IMG/VR virus record: IMGVR_UViG_3300027819_000001 | Span: 17,541-81,540 of that record | DNA from: a virus | Lineage: Duplodnaviria > Caudoviricetes | Direction: 5' to 3' (one strand) | Length of the DNA: 64,000 nt | Shown: one piece after another, positions 7,908 to 64,000 of the stretch | How positions within the stretch are numbered: position 1 is the stretch's first letter | Layout of the letters: every line of letters starts with the position of its first letter | Program-made: the position numbers and the translations under genes | Notes under the pieces: generated by a model | The model's database searches: none | Seen by the model: only the letters and a program-made list of their open reading frames with translations | Told to the model about the DNA's origin: nothing

Positions 7908-8998
7908 ACGAATGGATCCTCGTGCATATCCACCAACTGTTCAAAAAAATCAATCTTGCGGTGAGCCTTGCACTCATGGCGGCACACCTTTGAAGGGTCC
8001 AAATCCTTCCACTTCTTAATGTGCTCCGGTGATCCCCAGAAGTCGATGAACCGTTTGTCAGCCAGGGAACCAAGCTTGCCGTGCTCCGTATAGGCCGTAT
8101 CGGTGCAGGCATAAACGCATTGGTCCGCCCCGATGACCGGCACGGTCGTCGAGTAGAGGCACCGCTTGAATGGACGCTCCAGCTTCTTGGAGTTGTCGTC
8201 GAGCTTGTACGTCGAGTTGACGGAGAAGGTGCTGTCACAGAGTGACGTTATCTCCTGGAGTTGGGCCTCAACGCTCTCTTTGATCGCAGCGTGATATGCC
8301 TGGAAACCTTCCACCCAGACGGGAGAGAATCGGATGTTCTGAACCCCAATGCCCTTGAGCAGTTTCGAGAATTCGATCAGGCCAGTGCAGTTGTAGCGCG
8401 TGACGATGTAATTCACTCCAAGGTCGCACTTCGCGGGCTTAATTGTCGCGAAGAATTCCAGGTTTTTCATCACGCCAGCGAACGAGGACAGAGAAACATT
8501 TCTTGAATCCGCCATCGTTCGAGCATCGGTATAGTCGATACTCACACGAACCCACTTTCCCTGCCTCAAAATCTCCGCCCTTTCCCCGTTCAGGCTTTGA
8601 CCATTCGTGATTGCCGATAGCGCGATTCCATTCTCAAGCGTCCTTTCCATGATTCGGCAGATGCCTGGATGGATCAATGGCTCACCGCCTCCGGAATACG
8701 TGACCGCCTTCACTCCCATGGCTTTGAAGTCATCGAGAATCTCGATCATCTTCTCTGTTGGTATCACATCCCGCTCGTTCATTTCACCATGCATCCCGCC
8801 CTGGAGATGATCCTCCTGTCCATGATCCGATGGTCTTTTAGTCCCATCAGAAAATGTGCAAAAACGGCACGCGTGATTACAGCGATTGGTTGGCTTAACC
8901 CTCAGGTAAAGCGGAGGAGTTATCCGGTTTTCCCGGAACGCTTGGAGCTTCTCTGGATACTGGACGATCTTGAGGTCGCTGTACTTGTTGTTGTTCAT
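7904..8998 (-). CDS. Radical SAM / SPASM-type enzyme
   Basis: CNHACRFC cluster motif, SGGGEP, C-terminal Cys cluster (CLYS...VYAC...C..C). Start taken at MNNNK (ATGA overlap). Confidence 0.9.
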   Translation of the reverse strand: MNNNKYSDLKIVQYPEKLQAFRENRITPPLYLRVKPTNRCNHACRFCTFSDGTKRPSDHGQEDHLQGGMHGEMNERDVIPTEKMIEILDDFKAMGVKAVTYSGGGEPLIHPGICRIMERTLENGIALSAITNGQSLNGERAEILRQGKWVRVSIDYTDARTMADSRNVSLSSFAGVMKNLEFFATIKPAKCDLGVNYIVTRYNCTGLIEFSKLLKGIGVQNIRFSPVWVEGFQAYHAAIKESVEAQLQEITSLCDSTFSVNSTYKLDDNSKKLERPFKRCLYSTTVPVIGADQCVYACTDTAYTEHGKLGSLADKRFIDFWGSPEHIKKWKDLDPSKVCRHECKAHRKIDFFEQLVDMHEDPFV

Positions 8999-18423: not shown

Positions 18424-19772
18424 TCGGCCTCCTTCTGCTGAACCGCCCCATCCTCGATCACCACGGTCACTTCCTTGCCGTCCGATACCCTCTCAAGCCA
18501 CACCTGGGCGTCGTGTTCCTTGGCCAGTTGCCCCAACAGCTTCAGGCTGTCCGGATCCAGCAACGATCCATCCCGCACCAGCAGAACCCGCAACTTCGGA
18601 TTCAACGCCAGTCCAATGGCAACGGACACCCTCAGTTGCTGTGATGACGACGCCTGGCAGAACGGAAGGCCATCCAGCGTAACCCCACCGTCCTCGTCGA
18701 ACGACAACCCTGGAACAGGGAACTTCGATTCCGCCACAGCCTTCTTCTTGTCCTCGTCGATCTTATCGATCTTGGCGGTGAGTTCGTCGGACTGCTTGGA
18801 CTTGGCCAGCATTGCCTGTTCGGCAGCTTCTCTCGCCTTGTTCGACATGAGCTTGCCGTTGATCTCCTTGGCTTTGAGGACCTGCTCTTTCAGTTCGGTG
18901 TCGGTTGCATCGACTAGACCTTCAACTTCACCCAACGCAGTTTCGTGCAATAACTTCGCTGCATTCAGGGCTTCCTTTGGAACTTCCAATTCATTCGTCG
19001 CCCTGATCAGCAACTCCTCAGCCTTCTGAAGCTCAAGCTTTAGTTGCGTTACCCTCACAGCAAGATCATCCACTTTCATCTGCTCTTGCTGAAGTTTGTA
19101 CTCAGCATTGAACACGCCCTGCTGCTTAAGTTGAACGGATGCCCGGATTGCATCGTTCGCCCTGTTCTGCTCTGTAACCTTCCTCATCTCCGCATAAATC
19201 GCCTCAATCGAAACCTCCTCCTTCGGCAATCCTTGGTGAAACTCCATCCCGGAAAGCTGTGCCCGAATCTGCGTAACAGTCCGGTTGATTGCCGTCCTCT
19301 CGGTGTAGAATCCGGCCCGCTCCTGGTCCAGCTTCGTGAAGTCCAGCCCCACAATCCGTTTTAAGGTGTCTGCCTGCTCCTCAGGGCTCTGTCTGCTGAA
19401 TTCCAGGGGATCAAAGCTCAACTTTCCGACCAGCTTGTCCAGGAGGGCCTGGGGGCTCTTAAACACAGCGCCCTCTCCGTTCGACACGGTGAGGTTTGAT
19501 CCTCCACTCTCGGTGAACGACCGGGTGACGATGATATCGCCAAGATCGATCCGAACGAAACCGCCTTTGGTTCCTTTCCTCAATACCTTTGGTGGGATGC
19601 CAGGGGCGCCTCCAAGCGCGTAATAGATCGCGTCGAGGCAGGACGACTTCCCTTGATCATTGCGACCACCGATCACAATGAGGTTGCCGTCTTTGTCGGG
19701 GGTGATTTCAACGGCGGTGAGCCGCTTGATGTTCTCCGCCGTTAGGCGAAGAATCTTTGAAGATGCTTCCAT
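18420..19772 (-). CDS. SMC/SbcC/RecN-like ABC ATPase with central coiled coil
   Basis: Walker A GRNDQGKSS, long coiled coil, signature ASSSQQ, Walker B VLLVRDGSLLD. Confidence 0.9.
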   Translation of the reverse strand: MEASSKILRLTAENIKRLTAVEITPDKDGNLIVIGGRNDQGKSSCLDAIYYALGGAPGIPPKVLRKGTKGGFVRIDLGDIIVTRSFTESGGSNLTVSNGEGAVFKSPQALLDKLVGKLSFDPLEFSRQSPEEQADTLKRIVGLDFTKLDQERAGFYTERTAINRTVTQIRAQLSGMEFHQGLPKEEVSIEAIYAEMRKVTEQNRANDAIRASVQLKQQGVFNAEYKLQQEQMKVDDLAVRVTQLKLELQKAEELLIRATNELEVPKEALNAAKLLHETALGEVEGLVDATDTELKEQVLKAKEINGKLMSNKAREAAEQAMLAKSKQSDELTAKIDKIDEDKKKAVAESKFPVPGLSFDEDGGVTLDGLPFCQASSSQQLRVSVAIGLALNPKLRVLLVRDGSLLDPDSLKLLGQLAKEHDAQVWLERVSDGKEVTVVIEDGAVQQKEAE

Positions 19773-47025: not shown

Positions 47026-47568
47026 ATGACCAAACCTCAGGCTAAAGAATGTTCCGACTTTCTCTTCCTCACGATATCCAAGTTGGTAACAACGCCAGAC
47101 GAACTTCAGGTGGGTGATTTGCTTGGGAACTCTTTCCCTGTATCGGCCAACAAGCTGGACCGGAAACTGATCATCGGCGCCAAGGGACGTACGATCGCCA
47201 GCATCACGGCATTCCTGAATCAGTTCGCATCGGTGCGAGGATTGCAGACGGACCTGGAGGTAAAGGTCCAGGATGATCCCGAGTCCGGCAATGGAAGCCA
47301 GGAGAGGATCCCGGACGTTCGAAAACGATGGGCGGAGTCAGACAATGATTCGATAAGAGTTTTGGCTGGAAACATTTACGCTCGATTGTTTCCATATTCT
47401 CACAGCCTGATCCTGGTCAGGTCTTCGGCACGCGAGACGGTGGTTGAGTTGGACCAGAACGAATTAAACCCAACGTTGATGGGAGCTTTCTTCCACTACT
47501 TCCGGGCCGTGGGAATGTCCCGAGGCAGAGTGATAACCTTTGTCAGGCTCGATGAAGTCGTGCCGTGA
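47026..47568 (+). CDS. KhpA-like KH-domain RNA-binding protein with a C-terminal extension
   Basis: FL...ISKLV..PDEL.V ... LIIGAKGRTIASI (GxxG loop). Confidence 0.75.
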   Translation: MTKPQAKECSDFLFLTISKLVTTPDELQVGDLLGNSFPVSANKLDRKLIIGAKGRTIASITAFLNQFASVRGLQTDLEVKVQDDPESGNGSQERIPDVRKRWAESDNDSIRVLAGNIYARLFPYSHSLILVRSSARETVVELDQNELNPTLMGAFFHYFRAVGMSRGRVITFVRLDEVVP

Positions 47569-53696: not shown

Positions 53697-53987
53697 AGAT
53701 TTTACGCCTTCCAGTTGTTCATTTCCCCTTATTTTTACCACCTTTCACTCATGTCTGTCAATACCTGTCAGCACGCGTGTAGCTTTTTGTAAATGTCAGC
53801 CAAAGTGAGCCCATTCAGATACAGATACAGACTCTCCCTACCCTCTCTTGCTCAATTTCATCTCTCCTACAAAGTCCAAGATCATCCCAATTCCTACCTC
53901 GGTTCAAGCCATGCTCAAAGCCAAAGGACCCAGATAAAAAATTCCAATTTGAGGTTCGCAAGGGGACATCTCTATTCGATTGGCGCA

Positions 53988-54021
53988 CCCCGCCCCGGTC
54001 CCGCCTCTACCCGGCACCCCC
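53988..54021 (-). other. G-quadruplex-forming motif in the non-coding switch region
   Basis: Minus strand GGGGG-TGCC-GGG-TAGAGGC-GGG-ACC-GGGG-C-GGGG. Confidence 0.6.
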
Positions 54022-55109
54022 ATTTTCTGTCGGTTTGAGACGAGTTCATAATCAATTCCGCTGTGTTGACACTATCCGACGATCAGGATGCAACCTTGGC
54101 CTATTTCCGATCGATTACTGGGCATTCCAGTTCGGAGTCTCAACCTACTATTCTCGTTCTGGTGGTTCTGGACGTGTTTTTGGGGTGGTTTTGTGGTGTC
54201 CTGACCGTAGTTCCAGCCGGTTTCAGCCGGTTTGCGCTTCAGAACCGGCTCTATCGCACAAGTATGCAGTCAATCCCGCATCAGTTTGTTATGGCAGCAT
54301 GAGTCATTTACTATCATTTACTGTCATTTCTGTTGATACAGAATCGACAGGCGAAAATGCACACTTTATACACTCGGGACGGTTGAATCCCTACTGAAAT
54401 CATATAGATAGTAGAGAAGATTCAATGGTCGGGAACGTCTGGTCCAGCGTGAAGAGCTCGTGAAGGCTGGAAGGCAGCGCCGCCAGGAGACCAGGAGAGT
54501 AGTTCCCAGTCCAATGGATTCTCAACTTTGCGAGAGTGTTGATTCTCAGGTTTGAGAAAAAGGGGTGAATTTTCTCATAGATGAGAGGAAAAGTGGGGTT
54601 TTTGGGGTAAAAACGTGCTGGCATGGGTGTTGCTATGGCTGATCTTGTCGATTTTGATCTTTGGAAAACGGTGACGGCTACGGATGACGGATCTTCAGAG
54701 TGCGGTGTCCAGTTCGGACTTTCGAAAGGCGCACTCCCCGGAAGAAGTAGCGCGATAAGCAACCAAGCGACTGGCTTGGCTTCATCCCGATAGCAAGGGA
54801 GGAGTCAAAGAGGTAACGGGTTTGGACTGGTCAAGATTACCAGCGTCGATATGAGACGAGAAACATGGGAGAAAGCGCAACCTAAGACATTGCGCTGATT
54901 CATTCCGGCAAGGGCAATGTTCGAGACGGGAGATACGGGACAAGAGGTAAAGACTTCGTGGCCGTACACGGGAAGCGAGAGAGGGCATTCCACCGATAAC
55001 ATCAGTTAGTCAATAGGCTTGCCGGGGAGAATGAATCACGACAAGGACAATCAACAGAACACAGGGCTTTGTATACACATTGCCCTGCTCTTTCGTTTAC
55101 ACGTTAGAG

Positions 55110-55182
55110 GCGTTCTCTCGGTATCAGGGCAATGACTGTCAGGGTATCGAGCAAAACGCGGTTTAAGGAAAATACCACAATG
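55110..55182 (+). promoter_or_regulatory. Early-gene structured leader (variant) ending AAGGAAAATACCACA-ATG
   Basis: CGTT/AACG closing a hairpin, then the conserved RBS. Confidence 0.55.
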
Positions 55183-55698
55183 AATACTACAGAAAATGCG
55201 GTTGGAACGGTTGCGGTTAAGAACGAGATGGTTTTGACGCGGCCGGAGGGCAACGTTGCGATTATGGACGGCAAGACGGTTAAGACGTCCAATCTCAAGA
55301 CAGGTGTCTCAGGGGAGCGGTTGCAGACTTTGAAGGAATTCAAGGTTGGCAAGAAACTGGCCAATGGAGAGGCGAAACGGGCACACCGTGAGTACCTCCG
55401 GGAGAATGGCGTGGATGCTGGGCAGAAAGCGGCTGCTTTGTTTGCCTTTGGGATCCGGTTGCCTAAGGGAGAGTCATTCAATCCGAAGACTGGTACGGGC
55501 TGCACAAGGTGGACTTTGGCGAGTAAATTGGCGGAGCCTGTCAAGGTGGCGGAGATTGCGGCTGCTCCGGCTGCTCCCGTGGACTTGCTCTCCATCCTCG
55601 CCCAGTACGGGATTACCAAGGAGAGGTTCGAGTCGATGAAGACTGTCACTGGCCCTGCGTCTGACGTTTCCCCGGTTGCCGAAGTTAAGGCGGCTTAA
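55180..55698 (+). CDS. Hypothetical early protein
   Basis: Conserved RBS before the ATG, terminator after the stop. Confidence 0.7.
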   Translation: MNTTENAVGTVAVKNEMVLTRPEGNVAIMDGKTVKTSNLKTGVSGERLQTLKEFKVGKKLANGEAKRAHREYLRENGVDAGQKAAALFAFGIRLPKGESFNPKTGTGCTRWTLASKLAEPVKVAEIAAAPAAPVDLLSILAQYGITKERFESMKTVTGPASDVSPVAEVKAA

Positions 55699-55725
55699 TT
55701 CACCACCACACACTGAACGATTGAC

Positions 55726-55747
55726 GCCCCTCTTCGGAGGGGCTTTT
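55726..55747 (+). terminator. Rho-independent terminator
   Basis: GCCCCTC-TTCG-GAGGGGC-TTTT. Confidence 0.85.
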
Positions 55748-55851
55748 GCTTTATGGACTACGTGGAATTTTTGGTATGGTTGAACGCGTTTGAGCGTGGG
55801 GTGTACCTTGACCTTGACGAAGAGGGGCAAGGGTACTCGAGGATTGACTGA

Positions 55852-55958
55852 TTTCACTCGCCTTCCCGGTTGCGGCTGGGCAGGCGAGATGAGGCCAGAA
55901 AGGTTTCACGCGTGGCGTGGGCGTACTGCGCTGATTTGAAGGAAAATACCACACTATG
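55852..55958 (+). promoter_or_regulatory. Early-gene structured leader (variant)
   Basis: Stem CTCGCCT/AGGCGAG plus small hairpins, then AAGGAAAATACCACACT-ATG. Confidence 0.55.
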
Positions 55959-56168
55959 AAAAGGCGTATTGGAGATCCCGCTTTACAGCGGACAAGAACC
56001 AAGGTTGTGCTTTGGTTCATGAACAGTCGTACCGGACACCAGAAGCAAGTTGCGGCTGGAACCGAAGTTGAGTGCGATTACAACGGTTCATGGGCATATC
56101 TTTGGCTGTTGGACGATGGCAACTACCGTGCTTGTGCGGAGTTTGAACAGTTTGAGCACGAAGCGTGA
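55956..56168 (+). CDS. Hypothetical early protein
   Basis: Conserved RBS. Confidence 0.6.
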   Translation: MKRRIGDPALQRTRTKVVLWFMNSRTGHQKQVAAGTEVECDYNGSWAYLWLLDDGNYRACAEFEQFEHEA

Positions 56169-56313
56169 GCGGGGTCATGGGCCAAAAGGATGGCAACATC
56201 GCGTCAACCTGTTGGGATTCGAGGACAAGGTTGTCCTGTTGTGGAACAAGCGCATTCTGTGGATTGGAGTGCGCGGCGCTTTATGGGCTGCTCTTGGGCG
56301 TCCGGTTTGAGTG

Positions 56314-56383
56314 TTCGGTTTCACCGTGTGACAGGCGGTGTACCCGAGCGATCATGCTCGAATGAAAGGAAATACCACCTATG
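56314..56383 (+). promoter_or_regulatory. Early-gene three-way-junction leader
   Basis: TTCGGTT-CACCG..CGGTG-TACC-CGAGC..GCTCG-AAAGGAAATACCACCT-ATG. Confidence 0.7.
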
Positions 56384-56599
56384 GCAGAAAAGCTTAAGGT
56401 TGACTTGCCGGAACTGTATCGGCACGCAACGAAGGGAACTCGGCGCTTGCTGGCGCACTATTCGAATGCGGCTAACATGCCGTTGCTTCCGATTGAAATC
56501 ATACGCCATTTTTACAATGGGGATGCCGGTCTGAACGCGGCTATTGACTGCCTTGGCAAGGCGCTGGAGTGGTTGCCAAACACCAGGATATGGCGATGA
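56381..56599 (+). CDS. Hypothetical early protein
   Basis: Conserved leader/RBS. Confidence 0.6.
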   Translation: MAEKLKVDLPELYRHATKGTRRLLAHYSNAANMPLLPIEIIRHFYNGDAGLNAAIDCLGKALEWLPNTRIWR

Positions 56600-56911
56600 C
56601 CACCATAGAATTGATCGACCGGGCAGCATCGAAGCCGAATAGGCTGGCCACAATCCCAGTGGAACGTGCTGGTTGGGTGCGTGTTGGCCAGACGGTTTAT
56701 GGCTTTGCTGGTGCGAACCACCATGAGCCCGCGATGTACATGGAACTGAATCATCTCGATTCCGAGCATCGCAATCGCTGGGATGAGGCAATCGAAGCAA
56801 CTTTGATATGAAAGACCCATATTCACGGTATTGCTGGACGGAAGCGGCTATCGACCTGCTTGGCTGGATTGTGCTGGCCGGGCTGTTCGTGGGGCTGTTC
56901 TGGTTTTGGTT

Positions 56912-57167
56912 ATGAACTTTCGAGACGTAAAGACCAGCGCCGAAAGGCAACACTGGTTCTGGCAGCGCGAGCAAGAGGCGCTGCTGATGGCTGGCATTGC
57001 CGAGCGTCGTAAGGATACGGCTGGGCGTGCTGGGGAAGGAGGTTCCCGGAGCACAGGAGATTATCTGTCCTGGTGGATGGGCGGAGTTTGACGCCAAGGT
57101 GAAGTTCACTCGTGAGAGTGAGGCGGCGCTGACTGCTGCCCGGATGGTTACGCGCGAATACTCATGA
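56912..57167 (+). pseudogene. Early ORF with an apparent 1-nt insertion near 57005
   Basis: MNFRDVK...AGIAE shifts into VVRIRLGVLG...TREYS; span 256 = 3n+1, both ends ATGA-coupled. Confidence 0.45.
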
Positions 57168-57213
57168 AGCATGAGATCGCGATCTTGCAGGCCAACGGTG
57201 TTGAGTAAGGCTC

Positions 57214-57288
57214 TTCGGTTCTGCCATCCTACGGGGTGGCAGACCTGGACAGCCATGAAGGTTGTTCTGAAAGGAAAATACCACAATG
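57214..57288 (+). promoter_or_regulatory. Early-gene three-way-junction leader
   Basis: TTCGGTT-CTGCCA..TGGCAG-ACC-GGACAGCC..GGTTGTTC-AAAGGAAAATACCACA-ATG. Confidence 0.7.
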
Positions 57289-57588
57289 ACAACGATTACA
57301 GGAAATACGTACCCGGTGAAGGATCAGTTGAAAGCACTGGGTGGAAAATGGAACGCTGACGCCAAAGGTTGGAACGTTCCGGATGACAAGGCCGAACAGG
57401 CCAAAGCCATCGTGGCTGCTGCTGGACCGGCAAAGCCGTTCACCGGAGCGCGAAGCGATAGCAGTTATCGCCCAACACGCTGCAAGGAGTGCGGGTGCTC
57501 CGCGACTCGCTACAACAAGATTTACCGTAACGGCCAGTGCCGTGACTGCTACGTCTCGAACAAGGAAGAGGCTGAGATGGGGTACTGA
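57286..57588 (+). CDS. DUF5710-like domain protein with a C-terminal CxxC finger
   Basis: GNTYPVKDQLKALGGKW...KGW; CKEC...CRDC. Confidence 0.7.
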   Translation: MTTITGNTYPVKDQLKALGGKWNADAKGWNVPDDKAEQAKAIVAAAGPAKPFTGARSDSSYRPTRCKECGCSATRYNKIYRNGQCRDCYVSNKEEAEMGY

Positions 57589-57589
57589 T

Positions 57590-59071
57590 ATGAACCTTAA
57601 ACCCTACCGAAATGCTGGGGTACCGATACTCGCTATCGAGACGGCGGACCCTGGGGCGTTGATTAAGAGCGCGGTACGATCGCTGAACGGCAAGAGCAAC
57701 GTAACGCCTGTGATGCAATGGGACATTGTTAACGGGCTTACGGGGTTGAATGACCCTGGGAACGAGCTTGCGAGACAGGTTGGTCCGAATGGTGCGCTCG
57801 ATACTGGCAACCCTACCGAGTGCCTGTCCAAGCTGTGTGCGGATGGGACAGAACAGGCTATAACGTTCTTTCACATGGCCGGGAGGTTCCTGGATAACCC
57901 ATCGCTGGTACAGGCCGTTTGGCTCTGCCGGGATGCATTCAAGGCTCGGGCTTGCACCTTGGTGCTGCTCGGGCCGTCGTTCGTACTCCCTGAGGAGTTG
58001 AAACATGACGTGGTGGTGGTGACCGAGCCATTGCCTGATGCGGCTGAGATAGGCCGTATCGCGTCACAATTGGTCCAGGACGCATCTTTACCGGAGATGG
58101 GTGCCGAGATGGTGGTCAAGGTGACAGAATCGCTCCTGGGGCTTTCTGCGTTTGCGGCTGAGCAGTGCTTGGCTTTGAGCTTGACCAAGGCGAACGGTAT
58201 CGACCTGGTGGCATTGAGGGAGCGGCGCCGGTCGTTTCTTCAACAGTTGGCCGGGATTGAGGTTCGGCGTGATTCGATCACCTTTGCGGACATTGCTGGG
58301 TACGACAACGTGAAGGATGCGCTGAGCCGGAAGATCAAAGGGAAACGGCCACCCGGCTTGATTCTCTGGGTCGATGAGATGGAGAGAGCGGTTGCTGGCA
58401 GCCAGGGGGACACGTCCGGTGTGACGCAAGACCAGGTTGGCACGTTGTTGACTTGGATGCAAGACAAGCTGAATGCGGATAAGCTGTCCGCGATGCTCTG
58501 TATCGGCTTCCCTGGTACGGGAAAGAGTGCCATCAGCATGGCCCTACGGAACGAGGCACAATGTGAGTGCCTACGGTTGGACATGGGAGCCATGAAGGGT
58601 TCACTCGTCGGCGAGAGTGAGAAGAAGGTCCGCCAGGTGCTCAAGACGGTGGACGCCATGGCCGGGAGTCACATCCTCATGATCGCAACCTGCAACTCGG
58701 TTGAAGGCTTGCCTGCCCCGTTCATAAGTCGATGCGCGTTCGGTTCCTACATGTTTGATTTGCCACGACAGGAGGAAATGATCAGCCTGTGGGAAATCAA
58801 GATGAAGAAGTACGGCATCGTGGATGGCAAACCGCCGTTGGTTCTGTCTACCGGTTGGACAGGTCGAGAGATACAGCAATGCTGCTTCCTTGCGGATGAC
58901 CTGCAAATCACATTGGCCGAAGCGGCCAAGTACATCGCTCCGTTCTGCAAGAGTGGGGCGGCTGAGATCGAGACATTGAGAAACCAAGCCCATGGCCGGT
59001 GGATCAGTGCAAGTGCGCCTGGGATCTATCGGAAGGATGAGGCCAAGACAGGAAGGAGGATGATGGAATGA
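57590..59071 (+). CDS. Ycf46-like AAA+ ATPase with a permuted ATPase domain (Walker B block before Walker A block)
   Basis: Order in sequence: ILWVDE (58373) ... LLTWMQDK, then GFPGTGKS (58505), LDMG...GSLVGESE, then IATCN (sensor 1, 58694). Confidence 0.9.
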   Translation: MNLKPYRNAGVPILAIETADPGALIKSAVRSLNGKSNVTPVMQWDIVNGLTGLNDPGNELARQVGPNGALDTGNPTECLSKLCADGTEQAITFFHMAGRFLDNPSLVQAVWLCRDAFKARACTLVLLGPSFVLPEELKHDVVVVTEPLPDAAEIGRIASQLVQDASLPEMGAEMVVKVTESLLGLSAFAAEQCLALSLTKANGIDLVALRERRRSFLQQLAGIEVRRDSITFADIAGYDNVKDALSRKIKGKRPPGLILWVDEMERAVAGSQGDTSGVTQDQVGTLLTWMQDKLNADKLSAMLCIGFPGTGKSAISMALRNEAQCECLRLDMGAMKGSLVGESEKKVRQVLKTVDAMAGSHILMIATCNSVEGLPAPFISRCAFGSYMFDLPRQEEMISLWEIKMKKYGIVDGKPPLVLSTGWTGREIQQCCFLADDLQITLAEAAKYIAPFCKSGAAEIETLRNQAHGRWISASAPGIYRKDEAKTGRRMME

Positions 59072-59262
59072 ACGCATATCGTTTCGACTTCCTGACCAAC
59101 TGTTCAGAGTGCGGTTCACGCATCTATCGGTGCGACAAGCTGAGAATCGAGATGGACGGTTACATGTTCTGCTCCAAGTCGTGCAAGTGGATGAACGACA
59201 GGAGGGAGGCACACGCTCGCCACTGGCAAGCTTCCGTCTGCGACGCTGACTATATACCCTGA
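59068..59262 (+). CDS. Small Cys-rich (TRASH/zinc-finger-like) protein
   Basis: CSEC...FCSKSC. Confidence 0.55.
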   Translation: MNAYRFDFLTNCSECGSRIYRCDKLRIEMDGYMFCSKSCKWMNDRREAHARHWQASVCDADYIP

Positions 59263-59344
59263 TTCCCCCGTTGTGGCCCTACGCGGGGCCACTCCGGAGC
59301 AATCAAGCACCCGGTGCGCCGCCGTTACGGCGCGATAAAATATG
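59263..59344 (+). promoter_or_regulatory. Early-gene leader (degenerate, no RBS copy)
   Basis: CGTT-GTGGCCC..GGGCCAC-TCCGGAGCAATCAAGC; shares CCGGAGCAATCAAGC with the 59711 copy. Confidence 0.55.
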
Positions 59345-59710
59345 CAAGTGAAATCATTAGTTGACCTGTGCAAACGCGATGGAGAATTGGGGACACACAA
59401 CCGGGTTGAGCGCCTTACGCGCTACGCCGCAATGGTTGGGTGGGATAGCTTCGGGTCCCACTACAAGGAGTCCGATCCCACCGACGTTCCGGCTGATGTG
59501 GTCCGGCAGATACTCGCGCTCGACTACGCCGAGCGGTAGACGGACAATCTGGCAGAGATGGGCCGTCAGATGGGCAAGATACATGTCTCGGTGCCGTCCA
59601 ACGTCAACGTCTGGCAGCACCTCAAGGGTGAGCAGATCATGGCGGGCGCGGCCCGGCAATTGGCGGATGCCGCGAAGCTGCTCACCGAGGTCACCGAGGT
59701 AGCGCGATAG
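59342..59710 (+). pseudogene. Early ORF with an in-frame TAG at 59537-59539
   Basis: Frame continues TDNLAEMGRQ...TEVAR to a TAG that abuts the next leader element. Confidence 0.5.
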
Positions 59711-59780
59711 TTTCGTTCTGGCGTCACACCGTGGCGCTAGACCGGAGCAATCAAGCTTCAGAAGAAAGGATTACCACATG
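59711..59780 (+). promoter_or_regulatory. Early-gene three-way-junction leader
   Basis: TTTCGTT-CTGGCGTCAC..GTGGCGCTAG-ACC-GGAGC..GCTTC-AGAAGAAAGGATTACCAC-ATG. Confidence 0.7.
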
Positions 59781-59984
59781 ACACAGGACATCAAGAGGAA
59801 CATGGCTTTCCAGATCGGAGAGAAGCTGACCAACGAACCTGACCCACGGGACAAGGATATGTGGTTGGTGTGGCGGGTTCGCAAGGGTGACGTGACGCTG
59901 CTGGGAGCGTACGAGGCTTGGAACAAGCGGATCGCTGAATGGAACGCCGAATGGCAGAAGGAGCTTGGAGGACACATTGAGTGA
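59778..59984 (+). CDS. Hypothetical early protein
   Basis: Conserved leader/RBS. Confidence 0.6.
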   Translation: MTQDIKRNMAFQIGEKLTNEPDPRDKDMWLVWRVRKGDVTLLGAYEAWNKRIAEWNAEWQKELGGHIE

Positions 59985-60546
59985 CGGGGCGGCTGATCCT
60001 GCTTCGCTGCTGAGGCGAGCCCAAGCGATTGAGCGTGCAAGAGAGAGTCCATACAATTATTTCAGCGGGAGGCTTAAAACGCCTCCAGAGGAAGAGACGC
60101 GCATCCGCAGCGAGCTTGAGATCATCAAGCAGGACTACGCGGCGAAGCGGACGTTCACAACGACCTGGGTGCCATTCTATCTACCAAGCGGCAAGGTTGC
60201 TGTGAAAGTAGGCAATGAAGACGTTCGTGTTTTTGAGGACAAAAAGGACTATCCGGCTATGGATTATGCGCTTGATTTCTGCGCTCGGAACCGTCCGGTG
60301 CGTGACGACTCACCCAAGCCGAACCAATGGGAGAACCTGTTTCCAAGTGATAGATCACAACCATTATCGACGGGGAATCCGTTAGAGGTTTTTGGCTTGG
60401 TTGGTTACGATTCTGGCGGTGAGCAAGCTGCACGGGATAGAGTCCGTGCCAGGCTTGAGGCCAGAAAGAGGCAAGAGCCCAAGCCGAAGTCGAAGCCCAA
60501 GCGGGATCCTCTTGAGAGGGTATATCGCAAGTTCAACCTGGAATGA
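59965..60546 (+). CDS. Hypothetical early protein
   Basis: Collinear ORF; start uncertain. Confidence 0.5.
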   Translation: MEDTLSDGAADPASLLRRAQAIERARESPYNYFSGRLKTPPEEETRIRSELEIIKQDYAAKRTFTTTWVPFYLPSGKVAVKVGNEDVRVFEDKKDYPAMDYALDFCARNRPVRDDSPKPNQWENLFPSDRSQPLSTGNPLEVFGLVGYDSGGEQAARDRVRARLEARKRQEPKPKSKPKRDPLERVYRKFNLE

Positions 60547-60549
60547 TTT

Positions 60550-60804
60550 ATGAGACAACTGACATACGGAGATTGTAATCGAATCGCGGTTGCTCTTGGG
60601 TTATCGCCCGGAGAGTGGCATGGCCGGGATGACGACGCCCGAGGGCTGGCCTTCACGGTCTGCGGCGGCGAGTTGACGGATGGCTCCAAGCCGCCGCCTT
60701 GGCTTGGCCGCATGAACGGCTGGCATGTTGAGGAGATCGCCAAGGAAGCCATTGAACGCCATGCCGTTGAGCGGGTTGGCCGATACGGATGGAAAGCTTT
60801 ATGA
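60550..60804 (+). CDS. Hypothetical early protein
   Basis: Collinear ORF. Confidence 0.5.
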   Translation: MRQLTYGDCNRIAVALGLSPGEWHGRDDDARGLAFTVCGGELTDGSKPPPWLGRMNGWHVEEIAKEAIERHAVERVGRYGWKAL

Positions 60805-60929
60805 ATGCATGACGTGCCGGTGCGCCTCACCGGATGAGCGTGTAGAGCAGAACGGCCATAGCGCCTAAGCCAACGACATGAATGCAGATGAACCCTGAAC
60901 AAAAAGGATACGCCTTGAAAAAGACCTAG

Positions 60930-61006
60930 CCGTTCTCTCACTGGTAGCACTGCCAGTGAGAGACCGGAGCGGTTGCTCCAAAACAACGAAAGGAAAATAC
61001 CATATG
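60930..61006 (+). promoter_or_regulatory. Early-gene three-way-junction leader
   Basis: CCGTT-CTCTCACTGG..CCAGTGAGAG-ACC-GGAGC..GCTCC-AACGAAAGGAAAATACCAT-ATG. Confidence 0.75.
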
Positions 61007-61216
61007 AGCGAAGAACAAGCAGTGGAGTGGGTCTACGACCAGGACGAATCCGAATCGCATGACGCAAATGATCCCTGGTGGGATGATCTGGAACGGGCAT
61101 TCGTGGCAATCGTCGGACGGAAGCCAACAGCGCAGGAGGAACAGGAAGGAGTCTGGTCGCACCTTTGCGCCATGACGCCGAACTGTGGCACACGCCCAGA
61201 AACGGAGGTCGCATGA
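61004..61216 (+). CDS. Hypothetical acidic early protein
   Basis: Conserved leader/RBS. Confidence 0.6.
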   Translation: MSEEQAVEWVYDQDESESHDANDPWWDDLERAFVAIVGRKPTAQEEQEGVWSHLCAMTPNCGTRPETEVA

Positions 61217-61337
61217 ACATTTTAGCCCACCTAAGCACGACGCCGCACGGACACCCCGGCGAGATCGTGATCATCATTGTCGGATACGCCCTGGCGGCGG
61301 TTGCGCTCGCCTGGTGCTTTCGGAGAGGAGTGAAGCG

Positions 61338-61568
61338 ATGAACGATCCACTCAAAGTCCGCGCCGCCGATGGCAATTATGTGCTGGACGGCGATGACGTG
61401 GTGACAGACACCACGGGCGACAACGACCGATGCAACGCAATTGCGGCCATGCACGGTATGAACTACGTGAAAATCTTACGGAGGGCGTTGGAAACCCTTC
61501 CAGCGGTGTTCACGTTTCGACAGTTCGCAACTGCGTGTGAATCCATTTCCAATGAGGAGGGATTTTAA
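61338..61568 (+). CDS. Hypothetical early protein
   Basis: ATGA-coupled. Confidence 0.5.
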   Translation: MNDPLKVRAADGNYVLDGDDVVTDTTGDNDRCNAIAAMHGMNYVKILRRALETLPAVFTFRQFATACESISNEEGF

Positions 61569-61570
61569 CT

Positions 61571-61867
61571 ATGCCATGCTGGACAGCTACAATGGCTACC
61601 GTGAACTTAAAAGTGGCGGACCTTGACCTGCTGGAAGCAGCGTTTAAGGAGATGAATCTCAATCCGGTGCGCCAAGGCGAAGTGATCTACTTCGGCCAAC
61701 GAGGAGAAAGTTTCAACAAATCGACTGGAGAATTACGGGTACGATCGGAGCAGTCCGTTGCACCCATCAAGCGCGCTTACAGCCGCCAAATCGTGAAGAA
61801 AGCTGAGCGGTACGGCTGGAAGGTGGTCGATAAAGGACAAGGGAAATTCGAGCTTTTGAAAAGGTAA
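61571..61867 (+). CDS. DUF1257 (Ycf35)-like protein
   Basis: V.L...D.DLL..A..EM.L ... IKRAYS..IV..A..YGW.V pattern. Confidence 0.6.
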   Translation: MPCWTATMATVNLKVADLDLLEAAFKEMNLNPVRQGEVIYFGQRGESFNKSTGELRVRSEQSVAPIKRAYSRQIVKKAERYGWKVVDKGQGKFELLKR

Positions 61868-61871
61868 CCCT

Positions 61872-62078
61872 ATGCCAGACAAAATCACGGTGACTGTGCT
61901 CGAAAACGGGCAACTGAAGATCGAGACCGATACAATAAGTCTCGGGAACCATGTTTTGGCCGAACGCCTATTACAGGAACTCTGCACACTCGCAGGCGGC
62001 GAGGTAACGCGGAAGAACAAGAAAGGCTATGCGGAGCACTCGCACGGCCAGGGACAAGGATTCCATGCACACCACTGA
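61872..62078 (+). CDS. DUF2997-like protein with a His-rich tail
   Basis: ITVTVLENGQLKIETD.....H..AE.L..L..LAGG..TR pattern; follows the DUF1257-like gene. Confidence 0.6.
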   Translation: MPDKITVTVLENGQLKIETDTISLGNHVLAERLLQELCTLAGGEVTRKNKKGYAEHSHGQGQGFHAHH

Positions 62079-62088
62079 ACAAACGGTC

Positions 62089-62319
62089 ATGAAGGAGAAG
62101 ATCGAACTTGTGAACGATTTCCATGGCACCTACGCCAATGTTGTAGTGCCTTGGACAGGTTCATCGGTCCACTTCATTTCGAGATCAACATTCAATCGAG
62201 TCCGGCGTGCCCTTTGCGGGATGCTGGATTGCCAATGCGGCCAGACCAATGGCCGAGTCACGATGCACGCCGATTACGAAGGCCAACGCGGAAAGTTCGC
62301 CATCATTCGCCACTCATGA
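62089..62319 (+). CDS. Hypothetical early protein
   Basis: L.NDFH.T...R..R.LCG..DC.CG motif. Confidence 0.55.
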   Translation: MKEKIELVNDFHGTYANVVVPWTGSSVHFISRSTFNRVRRALCGMLDCQCGQTNGRVTMHADYEGQRGKFAIIRHS

Positions 62320-62507
62320 TCCCAACCCTGACCGATCACATCCCCGAGTGCGAGCAGTGCTTCGCGGCGTACCACCGGACAGGTGAGTACTGCAACGAGG
62401 GCAAGCGCCTCATGGACAAGCACACCGTGGTGATGGTCGTGCAACACACGAAGTTCCTTGAGGAGATGAAGGACCGGGAGTTCGTGGAACCGAAAAGTTT
62501 TGCTTAA
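62316..62507 (+). CDS. Small His/Cys protein
   Basis: H..EC.QC...YC.EG. Confidence 0.5.
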   Translation: MIPTLTDHIPECEQCFAAYHRTGEYCNEGKRLMDKHTVVMVVQHTKFLEEMKDREFVEPKSFA

Positions 62508-62683
62508 GCCGTTGCATAGCGGTCTCTTGGCAACAGTGCCCACACGGTGTGCTGTAAAAGGGTGAAAACCCCAACCGTGCCACCTTAGTCCGATGACAAA
62601 CGCTGTCCAGAATGCCAATGGACAGCGCCGTCAACGGAAGCAGTAAACAAATCCGTTGTAAACAGAAGGAAATACCACAGATG
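62508..62683 (+). ncRNA. Long structured leader/ncRNA ending in the conserved RBS
   Basis: At least 5 hairpins, including GGGT-GAAA-ACCC, CGCTGTCCA/TGGACAGCG and CAACGGA/TCCGTTG; possible pseudoknot CACGGT/ACCGTG. Confidence 0.55.
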
Positions 62684-62824
62684 AAGATCATCAACATAAC
62701 TCCAGCGATGGAGAAGGAATACCTGGCTGGAACATTGCCGGGATTCCTATCGTGCAATCCAAACTTCGGAATGGCTCATCTTATCGAGGTGACAGTCTGG
62801 CCAGTGGAAGGCGGTGCTCTGTGA
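62681..62824 (+). CDS. Small early protein (47 aa)
   Basis: Conserved RBS; GTGA overlap with the next gene. Confidence 0.55.
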   Translation: MKIINITPAMEKEYLAGTLPGFLSCNPNFGMAHLIEVTVWPVEGGAL

Positions 62825-63738
62825 AGACCGTCGATGTTAACCTTTTCCGCGATGCCGTGGCGTTCACGATGACGCTGCGCAAATGGGGCAACCGCCGTTC
62901 GGGCGACATGGCCAAGGTTGAGATGGACGCCAGCAAGTCCCGGTTCAAACTCTCCAAGCAGTTGGTTGAGAGTCCTGAGTTGGACGCGATCAACCAACAC
63001 CAAGGCGAGGTCTACAAATGGTGCCTGGAACGGAGCGTTCCAAGCTTCTTCAAGGACGGGCTCTACCTGGTCCGGTTGTCGGAGGTCGAAAACTTCGAAG
63101 CCAAGCTCAAAGAGGAGACGGCCAAGATGCAGGCGCTGATCAAGGACTTCTGCGATGCCTATCCTAAGCGCAAGGATGAGGCAAGAGCGGCTTTGAACGG
63201 CCAATACAGGGAGGATGACTACCCGACCGTTGAGGACATGCCTGGGCGGTTTTCCATCACCTGGAACTGGATCGCCTTTGGTGTCCCGGAGAACCTGCCT
63301 GCTGAGCTTCGGGCTTCTGAGGCTGCAAAGATCGAGCAGCAATTCAAGGACGCTGAAACCGAGATCATGTCCGCTCTTCGGGAAGGGTTCGGCAAGATCG
63401 TCAAGCACGTCACCGATCGGTTGGGTGAGGAGACCAAGGACGGCGAGAAGAAGCCGAAGATATTCCGTGACACCCTGTTCGAGGACATGACGACTTTCGT
63501 CACAACGTTCTCTGCCAGGAACCTAGTGAACGACACCGAGCTTGAGAAATGCGTCAAAGCTGCTCAGTCAATCCTCGCCAATGTTAGTGGCGGTGATGCC
63601 AAGAGTAAAGCTCAGGTGATTCGGGACTCCTCGCAGCTTCGGGCTCAGACAGCCGAAGCGTTCACCCTGCTAAAGTCCGCCGTCGATAAGACAATCGCGG
63701 ATAAACCCCAACGCAAGTTCAACTTCGACGACGAATAG
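62821..63738 (+). CDS. DUF3150-like protein
   Basis: W...R...K.L.SP.L..I...S.P....G.YLV...A...L...Y...DYP....RF.I.W pattern. Confidence 0.7.
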   Translation: MKTVDVNLFRDAVAFTMTLRKWGNRRSGDMAKVEMDASKSRFKLSKQLVESPELDAINQHQGEVYKWCLERSVPSFFKDGLYLVRLSEVENFEAKLKEETAKMQALIKDFCDAYPKRKDEARAALNGQYREDDYPTVEDMPGRFSITWNWIAFGVPENLPAELRASEAAKIEQQFKDAETEIMSALREGFGKIVKHVTDRLGEETKDGEKKPKIFRDTLFEDMTTFVTTFSARNLVNDTELEKCVKAAQSILANVSGGDAKSKAQVIRDSSQLRAQTAEAFTLLKSAVDKTIADKPQRKFNFDDE

Positions 63739-63744
63739 GATCAT

Positions 63745-64000
63745 ATGGAAATCACAATCAAAACACAGGCGGAATTGGACGCTCTACCTAAGGCGTTCAC
63801 GGAATATACGGTTCTCCGAATCGAGTCCACAGAGTGGATTACGGTCGTGGCGAGGGGGAACAGCAGGGTCGAGGCGTGGGAGAACAGCAGGGTCGAGGCG
63901 TGGGAGAACAGCACGGTCGTGGCGTGGGGGAACAGCACGGTCGTGGCGTGGGAGAACAGCAGGGTCGTGGCGTGGGAGAACAGCACGGTCGTGGCGTGGG
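63745..64000 (+). CDS. 8-aa-repeat (solenoid-like) protein, truncated by the window end
   Basis: MEITIKTQAELDALP... followed by (T/R)V(V/E)AW(E/G)NS repeats. Confidence 0.75.
   Translation, partial: MEITIKTQAELDALPKAFTEYTVLRIESTEWITVVARGNSRVEAWENSRVEAWENSTVVAWGNSTVVAWENSRVVAWENSTVVAW
63841..64000 (+). repeat. 24-bp tandem repeat, 6.7 copies visible
   Basis: Unit A(C/G)GGTCG(T/A)GGCG(T/A)GGG(A/G)GAACAGC. Confidence 0.95.

Follow-up and report, generated by a model that had tools for sequence, protein, structure and literature searches.

Repeated hairpin leaders ahead of early gene blocks in an uncultured phage as candidate mRNA punctuation

The early regions of phages show the fastest turnover of host-takeover and anti-defence genes, and how these genes are bundled so that they can be expressed and exchanged has, to our knowledge, been worked out in detail only in a handful of model phages. 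The question is raised here by a 7.5-kb stretch of an uncultured phage in which eight structured intergenic leaders (E1 to E8, between 55108 and 62680, all on the + strand) stand ahead of blocks of mostly small genes. The window analysed comprises 64,000 nucleotides, bases 17541-81540 of an IMG/VR virus record of 81,540 bp, and positions are those of the window unless stated otherwise. An initial annotation, made from the sequence alone, had taken the leaders for an undescribed repeated cis-element that processes, translationally gates or shuffles early genes. With about even confidence, we read them as mRNA punctuation, that is, as processing or stabilising hairpins joined to a standardised open start site, which double as short-homology joints for cassette exchange.

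Hairpin modules and start sites of the eight leaders

With respect to RNA folding, all eight gaps are more stable than dinucleotide shuffles (strongest hairpin z of -2.45 to -5.4), the first half of E8 being the only weak fold (z of -1.4), and 13 of the 38 most stable 50-nt windows on the genome's + strand lie within this 7.5-kb stretch. In E1, E2a, E3, E4 and E6, the + strand folds 5 to 12 kcal/mol more stably than its complement, because 27 of the 187 pairs are G.U, and this strand asymmetry points to structure in the sense RNA and counts against a double-stranded DNA palindrome.

Leaders E3 to E7 share one module, in which a small symmetric internal loop separates a lower helix from a variable upper stem and a 5-bp mini-hairpin follows directly, with the order GUU, hairpin, (A)CC and G(G)A(G)C mini-hairpin in common. 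The initial annotation had described this architecture for its four clearest copies; it is seen in E3, E4, E6 and E7, and E5 has it too. E3 (56311-56380) carries the lower helix, a 3x3 loop and a 6-bp upper stem at 56316-56346 and the mini-hairpin at 56345-56360. In E4 (57209-57285; z of -4.5; -32.5 kcal/mol for the + strand versus -21.9 for the - strand), a 19-bp bipartite hairpin with a U.C internal loop spans 57209-57254, and an alternative second hairpin spans 57247-57267. The bipartite hairpin of E5 (59263-59341) lies at 59260-59305, with a 2x2 loop, and is followed by a weak mini-hairpin (59296-59311). E6 (59706-59777; z of -3.7; -24.9 versus -13.0 kcal/mol) has a 20-bp bipartite hairpin with a U.C loop (59706-59752), the lower helix of which contains the stop codon, and a mini-hairpin at 59744-59759, while E7 (60930-61003) combines a hairpin with a U.C loop at 60932-60965 (z of -5.4) with a mini-hairpin at 60966-60979.

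A structural alignment of E3 to E7 was built from coordinates in Python, MAFFT alignments being out of structural register. In this alignment, pairing is canonical in 30 of 30 cells of the upper helix, with two to three pair types per column, in 15 of 15 cells of the 3-bp top of the lower helix, where the closing G-C is invariant, and in 24 of 25 cells of the mini-hairpin, which bears out the earlier claim that different stem sequences keep pairing. The internal loop is U.C in E4, E6 and E7, UU/UC in E5 and UUU/UAC in E3. Two nucleotides are common to the lower helix and the mini-hairpin, so that the two compete, and RNAalifold favours the upper stem plus mini-hairpin. Interrupted by internal loops of 1x1 to 3x3, the helices measure 16 to 20 bp in E1, E3, E4, E6 and E8b and 13 to 17 bp in E2, E5 and E7.

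The other three leaders have hairpins of different shapes. E1 (55108-55179) forms a 19-bp composite hairpin at 55110-55159 (-22.8 kcal/mol for the + strand versus -11.7 for the - strand), E2 (55852-55955) has hairpins at 55857-55888 and 55890-55908 plus a third one, and E8, 173 nt long (62508-62680), has hairpins at 62508-62523, 62528-62582 and 62590-62637. Sequence patches are nevertheless shared across shapes: E1 and E4 have 19 nt in common, E5 and E6 share 27 nt at 81% identity, including 15 identical bases, and the 15-nt GAAAGGAAAATACCA is identical in E4 and E7 and 87% identical in E1 and E2. A loose structural descriptor recovers E3, E4, E6 and E7 here, and its sense-strand excess in related phages is only 1.8-fold, so that it is too unspecific to claim family-wide conservation.

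All eight elements open with CG(G)UU, 2 to 16 nt past a stop triplet, against a background of 0.12 occurrences per 22-nt window. That most elements start close to the preceding stop, as initially annotated, is thus true of the triplets; the stop closes a credible open reading frame (ORF) in E3, E5, E6 and E8, and likewise in E2 if a 32-amino-acid (aa) ORF is real.

At the other end, seven of the eight leaders finish in a ribosome-binding-site motif, AAGGA(A)(A/T)TACCA(C/T), with an ATG 0 to 3 nt after it. The seven copies begin at 55165, 55939, 56366, 57271, 59766, 60990 and 62666 (E1, 55165-55178, ATG 55180; E2, 55939-55952, ATG 55956; E3, 56366-56378, ATG 56381; E4, 57271-57284, ATG 57286; E6, 59766-59776, ATG 59778; E7, 60990-61003, ATG 61004; E8, 62666-62678, ATG 62681), all on the + strand, and are the only ATG-linked copies in the full 81.5-kb genome. 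The looser form AAGGA-N1-4-TACCA occurs 9 times in the window versus 0.2 expected. No copy of the start motif that could act as an antisense partner is found on the reverse strand of the whole genome. E5 is the leader that lacks the motif, as previously noted; it also lacks a Shine-Dalgarno sequence (SD) and has instead an extra GC-rich 7-bp hairpin (59315-59334) followed by AUAAAAU-AUG (ATG 59342). Scans of IMG/VR with the exact start motif and with the pattern GTTCT...AGACCGGAGC...AAGGA returned chance matches only, none folding like an element.

The SD portion itself is ordinary. GAAAGGA, which pairs with the usual 3' end of 16S rRNA, is read in five of the seven copies at an aligned spacing of about 8 nt, so the question whether this is a host-style SD context has a divided answer, only the invariant spacer being unusual. 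This spacer, AAUACCAC, is G-poor and identical or nearly identical ahead of seven unrelated genes, and the spacers of the remaining SD-led genes of the genome are unrelated to it; among genes outside the region, an SD-like tetramer precedes only about 40%, despite a start-picking rule that favours such tetramers. Since the proteins downstream of the motif are mutually unrelated, the conserved part is the leader and not a duplicated gene. Two other explanations of the spacer were rejected: extended pairing with the 16S 3' end, because GAAAGGA alone pairs, and a leaderless mRNA with the motif as -10 box, because no TAnnnT lies at the right distance.

In 130-nt contexts, the probability of being unpaired from -20 to +3 is 0.61 to 0.81 in seven leaders and 0.43 in E2, compared with a median of 0.47 over all genes (interquartile range, 0.39 to 0.57), so that the seven exceed the upper quartile. 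The start regions are thus predicted to be unusually open, and the hairpins appear to insulate rather than gate them. This speaks against translational gating by a three-way junction, in which the 5' tract had been proposed to pair with the purine tract at the SD: the SD is mostly unpaired, and we observe only 3 bp of such pairing, in one short fold of E7.

A second start-region motif, AACGGCTTACGGAC(T/A)(A/C)CGAT(A/T)-ATG, stands in for a normal SD before replication and recombination genes elsewhere in the window, at 19772(-), 38204(+) and 47755(+), with looser copies at 47026(+) and 37995(-). It marks three replication-phase genes, and at least two of its sites come after TTGAC-type promoters.

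Gene blocks and the same slots in related phages

Genes within a block overlap by ATGA or GTGA or lie a few bases apart, and the elements are found only between blocks. E1 precedes the 172-aa ORFan g1, and E4 heads g8, an AAA ATPase (PF00004, 57590-59071, +) and g10. This ATPase is the core gene of the module, present in 240 of 240 related loci, the set used for comparison, in which ATPase identity is no closer than 45%. Among 27 predicted proteins and short-ORF candidates compared with these loci by tblastn, four are conserved, namely the ATPase, two small proteins of 98 and 68 aa (61571-62078, +; 29 and 47 loci) and a 305-aa protein (62821-63738, +; 174 loci). Two others, g8 and g21, occur in one locus each, and the remaining 21 have no match, so that 23 of the 27 are ORFans or single-locus sequences, in agreement with the initial annotation that the elements head blocks of small genes.

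The distance from the end of the ATPase gene to the 305-aa gene is 3750 nt here and 21 to 6351 nt (median, 1352) in those loci where the latter is downstream; it is upstream in three loci. This variable spacing of core genes, together with the ORFan blocks, indicates that the element-headed blocks are lineage-specific insertions in a hyperplastic junction. The 15- to 27-nt patches shared among elements could, by analogy, serve as short-homology crossover points, and together with the variable spacing they make the proposed shuffling plausible.

The source record has a terminal overlap of 57 bp and is a circular assembly, so that the + strand gene block from 55180 runs on into the start of the record. 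The phage encodes a large terminase, a DnaB-type helicase and a tyrosine integrase, and has kinship to phages of soil Acidobacteriota. Blastn against phage records gave no match, nor did a search for loci with a single protein, and the ATPase has hundreds of homologues, the best of them at no more than 59% identity. Related loci come chiefly from soil, peat and freshwater-sediment metagenomes, some of them in genomes assembled as Acidobacteriota (Bryobacterales, Terriglobia), and the top ATPase matches are in Armatimonadota bins. Several related loci are embedded in megabase contigs, which indicates that the family is temperate and widespread. It has a member in culture, Tunturiibacter phage Tunturi_3 (PP885686; PMC11924767), whose ATPase is 34% identical.

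Rfam 15 holds no family that reaches its gathering score anywhere in the window, and even at E <= 5 nothing matches within 54500-64000; the same search detects twister ribozymes in relatives. The description of the elements as new therefore stands for the sequence family, but not for the category of element, which is known from phage T7 RNase III sites, from promoter-early stem-loops (PeSLs) and from ribozyme-flanked prophage genes.

Twister-P5 ribozymes are found at gathering score in three related loci (L047:9531-9587, 50.9 bits; L043:4926-4990, 48.7 bits; L016:5661-5758, 39.5 bits). Sub-threshold twisters with intact core motifs occur at L023:8358-8425 and 8800-8868 and at L067:6826-6886, and sub-threshold hammerhead-like sequences at L006:8299-8360, with a textbook CUGAUGAG...GAAAC core, and L042:7882-7935, a one-base variant. 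All of these lie on the ATPase strand, 0.4 to 5 kb upstream of the ATPase. Each is placed in the interval from the end of one gene to the start codon of the following one; an SD can be recognised in most cases, and in four a stop codon immediately precedes the element. The L047 twister begins directly after a TAA, ends 10 nt before AAGGAGG and heads a 99-aa gene plus the ATPase, the same placement as that of E4; homology between g8 and the gene that follows this twister was considered and rejected, as the two are unrelated. The slot type (stop, RNA element, SD, ATG) and the phage module are thus those of prophage hammerheads and twisters (RF00008, RF02684), whereas the elements described here match no ribozyme model and have no conserved catalytic core. 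These findings are in line with the work of Perreault et al. (2011), who reported hammerheads flanking prophage genes or short gene blocks, including an example in Solibacter, and proposed that they process long phage transcripts (PMC3088659). The ribozymes in the same slots of relatives make the initially proposed processing plausible here as well.

In Tunturi_3 (L270), the early-gene gaps, of about 70 to 80 nt, are of two kinds, neither of which is described in the isolation paper (PMC11924767). Gaps at 1964, 3399, 6914 and 8579 hold a TTGACA-type promoter (CTTGACA-N17/18-TAnnnT), and those at 509, 1295, 2425, 3688 and 5359 a two-hairpin module. The promoters thus occupy separate gaps, which indicates that the hairpin module there is not the promoter. 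The module comprises a variable bipartite hairpin, its internal loop measuring 1x1 to 3x3 (one copy has a continuous stem instead), and an adjoining conserved mini-hairpin, CUGCUAUUAGCAG, then AAGGAGA in four of five copies and the ATG, and it has no Rfam match. It recurs in the spaces that separate small early genes, ahead of the homologous ATPase, and has the same outline as E3 to E7; the likeness is one of outline only, since the sequence (GAGUU...GACUC plus CUGCUAUUAGCAG) is unrelated. The early region of Tunturi_3 also encodes an RNA 2'-phosphotransferase (gp90).

Many relatives hold repeated intergenic strings of their own in the ATPase module, and L016, L015 and L059 have their own repeated extended SD-plus-spacer strings. 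In L015 (44% ATPase identity), leader cassettes lie at 2626, 3295, 5060, 5721, 6741 and 10349, one of them directly before the ATPase, and most copies consist of a gene-specific hairpin, a conserved composite hairpin (CCCCGC...CCGGAnGC.TCCACGyGGCGCGGGG), about 32 nt, GGAGCGGAAAA and an ATG. Perfect 12-bp palindromes with an AACGTT core (GGCAACGTTGCC, CCAAACGTTTGG and GGAAACGTTTCC) occur in L054, L055 and the L060-L066/L071/L075/L085 group, where they stand in the gaps that precede the ATPase cluster and, in addition, within a conserved gene at a single homologous position. Their sequences vary in concert between phages, and they look like operators of a co-evolving dimeric regulator, to judge from the sequences; the group with GGAAACGTTTCC also has a repeated promoter-like box, GGTGGCGTTA.

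Elsewhere in the genome, the largest gene of the phage is a 2484-aa ORF on the - strand (L005:6728-14182, genome coordinates), which matches no Pfam or PHROG family. A 264-aa gene starting at 63745 contains 24-nt tandem repeats (8-aa units, 74 to 94% alike) from 63817 to 64000 and on into the record start. Between the leftward and the rightward gene blocks lie 1.4 kb without convincing genes (53750-55180), with direct repeats CATTTACT(A/G)TCATTT at about 54306-54335.

Readings of the leaders

Because related phages have self-cutting ribozymes in the same kind of slot, the modules most likely cut, stabilise and insulate one long early message. As mRNA punctuation, they would divide a long, read-through sense-strand early mRNA into blocks of translationally coupled small genes, each block ending in a stable hairpin module without a U-tract. 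A host double-strand-specific endonuclease of the RNase III type would cut at or near the module, or the module would at least block 3' exonucleases; the upstream segment would retain a protective 3' hairpin, and the downstream block would begin with a free, insulated and standardised start, composed of the GAAAGGA SD, the spacer and the AUG. The same short sequences at every joint would offer crossover points for the gain and loss of ORFan blocks.

In phage T7, the hairpin stays on the upstream mRNA after cutting, and the downstream start is freed. The T7 early region is read by the host polymerase as a precursor of about 7 kb that is cut at five RNase III sites, each site being a composite hairpin, interrupted by an internal loop, that separates single genes or groups of genes (PMC4858673). 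The likeness to these signals (R0.3 to R1.3) lies in eight intercistronic hairpin modules within 7.5 kb, several of them composite helices of about two turns with an internal loop; the sequences are unrelated, the small symmetric loops, the added mini-hairpin and the invariant start region are particular to the elements described here, and cleavage is predicted only. Punctuation is supported by the pairing that E3 to E7 keep despite differing stem sequences and by composite helices that, at 16 to 20 bp and interrupted by an internal loop, match T7 RNase III sites in size. It also draws support from the sense-strand bias of the folds, the open start regions, the ribozymes in the slots of relatives, the separate promoter gaps of Tunturi_3 and the ORFan blocks in a hyperplastic junction.

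Several points weigh against it. We infer the single long transcript, any cleavage, the enzyme that would cut and recombination at the elements. For RNase III, the helices lie towards the lower limit of length, and those of E2, E5 and E7, with 13 to 17 bp, are the shortest. The ribozyme slots in relatives are equivalent in position and not orthologous, as the gene after the L047 twister illustrates, and the loci compared are at no more than 45% ATPase identity, the closest relatives (55 to 59%) being Logan and JGI contigs. The conserved CG(G)UU edge and the invariant AAUACCAC are not explained structurally and hint at an additional sequence-specific factor. Finally, the one strong intrinsic terminator of the region, after g1 (55726-55750, +; hairpin with 7 pairs, 6 of them G-C, at 55726-55743, then a U-tract), calls for an unlocated promoter between 55750 and 55955, so that further unrecognised promoters may exist.

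Termination is also central to a reading that we consider unlikely, in which the hairpins act as attenuators, terminating weakly or only with the help of a factor, and so set the level or timing of expression along an early operon; a phage antiterminator would read through them, and the motif would simply provide each unit with a strong start. In lambdoid early operons, a phage antiterminator reads through terminators, and the present phage is of a temperate type, with an integrase and prophage relatives, its hairpins stand directly after stop codons and the terminator after g1 lies in the same region, outside any leader. However, a U-tract is missing after all eight hairpins, which thus lack the combination of GC-rich hairpin and U-tract of the canonical terminators used elsewhere in this genome; the other matches of the terminator scan are weak (5 to 6 pairs) and no more frequent than chance predicts, and one of these lies across the E3 start region on the minus strand. 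No promoter was found that would restart transcription, and ribozymes, which occupy the same slots in relatives, cut RNA and do not stop polymerase.

The searches for transcription signals were otherwise negative as well. A sigma-70 consensus scan found no credible promoter in any element (4 sites versus 5.2 expected), the sole site inside an element (56328-56355, in E3) having its -35 hexamer in the loop of hairpin 1, and 53.7-64 kb contains no copy of the TTGAC-N17-19-TAnnnT form, which stands ahead of replication genes in this phage and is found in Tunturi_3 as well; a sigma-70 promoter within the elements was therefore rejected. In the gene-poor 53750-55180, no promoter was recognised, and the early promoter was not located there. 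No phage protein has a sigma-factor domain by profile search, and the PF00940 profile for T7-like RNA polymerases has no match in the phage, a weak negative given that the control of this search gave a signal in no genome. On these grounds, and with no Pfam or PHROG family matching the 2484-aa protein, a phage RNA polymerase or N4-type hairpin promoters were rejected, and the analogy with single-stranded DNA promoters of leading regions falls for the same reason and because the elements fold best as sense RNA with G.U pairs. The lack of promoter-like sites and U-tract terminators in the elements and of a polymerase or sigma factor of the phage fits read-through transcription.

Similarly unlikely, though compatible with punctuation, is the idea that an RNA-binding regulator acting in trans recognises the 14-nt start region as its operator, perhaps together with the CG(G)UU edge, and switches the whole early set on or off at once, much as T4 RegA or RegB act on early mRNAs. 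The near-identity of the spacer before seven unrelated genes, when the spacers of other SD-led genes differ, would be expected of an operator, the AACGGCTTACGGAC motif on replication-phase genes suggests class-specific control, and a possible KH-domain protein is encoded at 47026-47568, with a weak Pfam match (E of 0.011, below the cut-off). No regulator was identified, however, and the composition of the motif, rich in A and poor in G, is that expected of any efficient open start site; homogenisation by recombination or selection for efficiency may suffice, given that L016, L015 and L059 have repeated SD-plus-spacer strings of their own.

We regard as improbable that the elements are PeSL-like promoter/terminator cassettes with a promoter type that goes unrecognised because of an unknown host sigma specificity, each block being its own transcription unit. 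PeSLs are repeated intergenic cassettes of T4-type phages, concentrated in plastic, ORFan-rich regions, with a stem-loop at one end, an SD and start codon at the other and a sigma-70-like -35/-10 promoter between stem-loop and SD (PMC2839356, PMC4122927), and are thought to mediate gene shuffling via short homology (PMC4122927). The analogy drawn in the initial annotation holds for the layout, with a 5' stem-loop, a 3' SD and a start codon beside ORFans in a plastic region (PMC4122927); some promoter must follow the terminator at 55726, and relatives such as L061 bear repeated promoter-like motifs in these gaps. It fails for the promoter, since only 13 to 25 nt separate hairpin and SD, which leaves no room for one, and neither the consensus scan nor the TTGAC-N17-19-TAnnnT form reveals a -35/-10 pair. 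An extracytoplasmic-function-type promoter (GGAAC-N16-17-CGTT) was likewise rejected by eye: its spacing fits none of the eight gaps, and GGAAC occurs in E8 only, 19 nt upstream. In Tunturi_3, moreover, promoters and hairpin modules lie in different gaps.

The slot shared with known ribozymes also raises the possibility, in our view quite improbable, that the whole module (lower helix, U.C-type loop, upper stem, mini-hairpin and CG(G)UU edge) is a new RNA-cleavage device, either a small self-cleaving ribozyme or a dedicated substrate for an as yet unrecognised nuclease of phage or host, interchangeable with the twisters and hammerheads of the family and with the 14-nt start region as a handle for joint control. 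In its narrower form, where the two hairpins themselves would replace these ribozymes, as a new RNA that cleaves itself or as the specific substrate of a nuclease encoded by the phage, we hold it to be highly improbable. The bipartite hairpin with internal loop and small 3' hairpin recalls the outline of twister-P5, a G-C / U.C / U-A core is conserved around the internal loop and no Rfam family matches, but the invariant nucleotides are too few for a catalytic core, the internal loops range from 1x1 to 3x3 with unrelated loop sequences, no conserved pseudoknot partner is found and the shape is missing from E1, E2 and E8.

That the elements are integron-like (attC-like) DNA recombination sites for the phage tyrosine recombinase is extremely improbable: they are structured imperfect inverted repeats directly 3' of promoterless gene blocks, with variable centres and conserved ends including GTT, and a tyrosine recombinase is encoded about 6 kb downstream, but their ends (CG(G)TTCT...AGACCGG, GTT on the 5' side) have the order opposite to RYYYAAC...GTTRRRY, they are shorter than attC sites, their stability relies on G.U pairs, which favours RNA, and the 290-aa recombinase is an ordinary phage integrase match (generic PF00589) outside any integron integrase context.

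Early-gene packaging in the phage family

One phage family links putatively protein-dependent hairpins, self-cleaving ribozymes and promoter cassettes, all in the same slot. With three solutions in one slot, the role of bacterial and phage twister and hammerhead ribozymes becomes directly testable, since each could be exchanged for a hairpin processing site to see if the two are equivalent. What is added to the known category of element is this equivalence of ribozyme slots within one phage family together with a cultured relative, and Tunturi_3, on Tunturiibacter psychrotolerans, is an available experimental system. The unit of a hairpin plus an open start may, in addition, serve as a natural insulator part.

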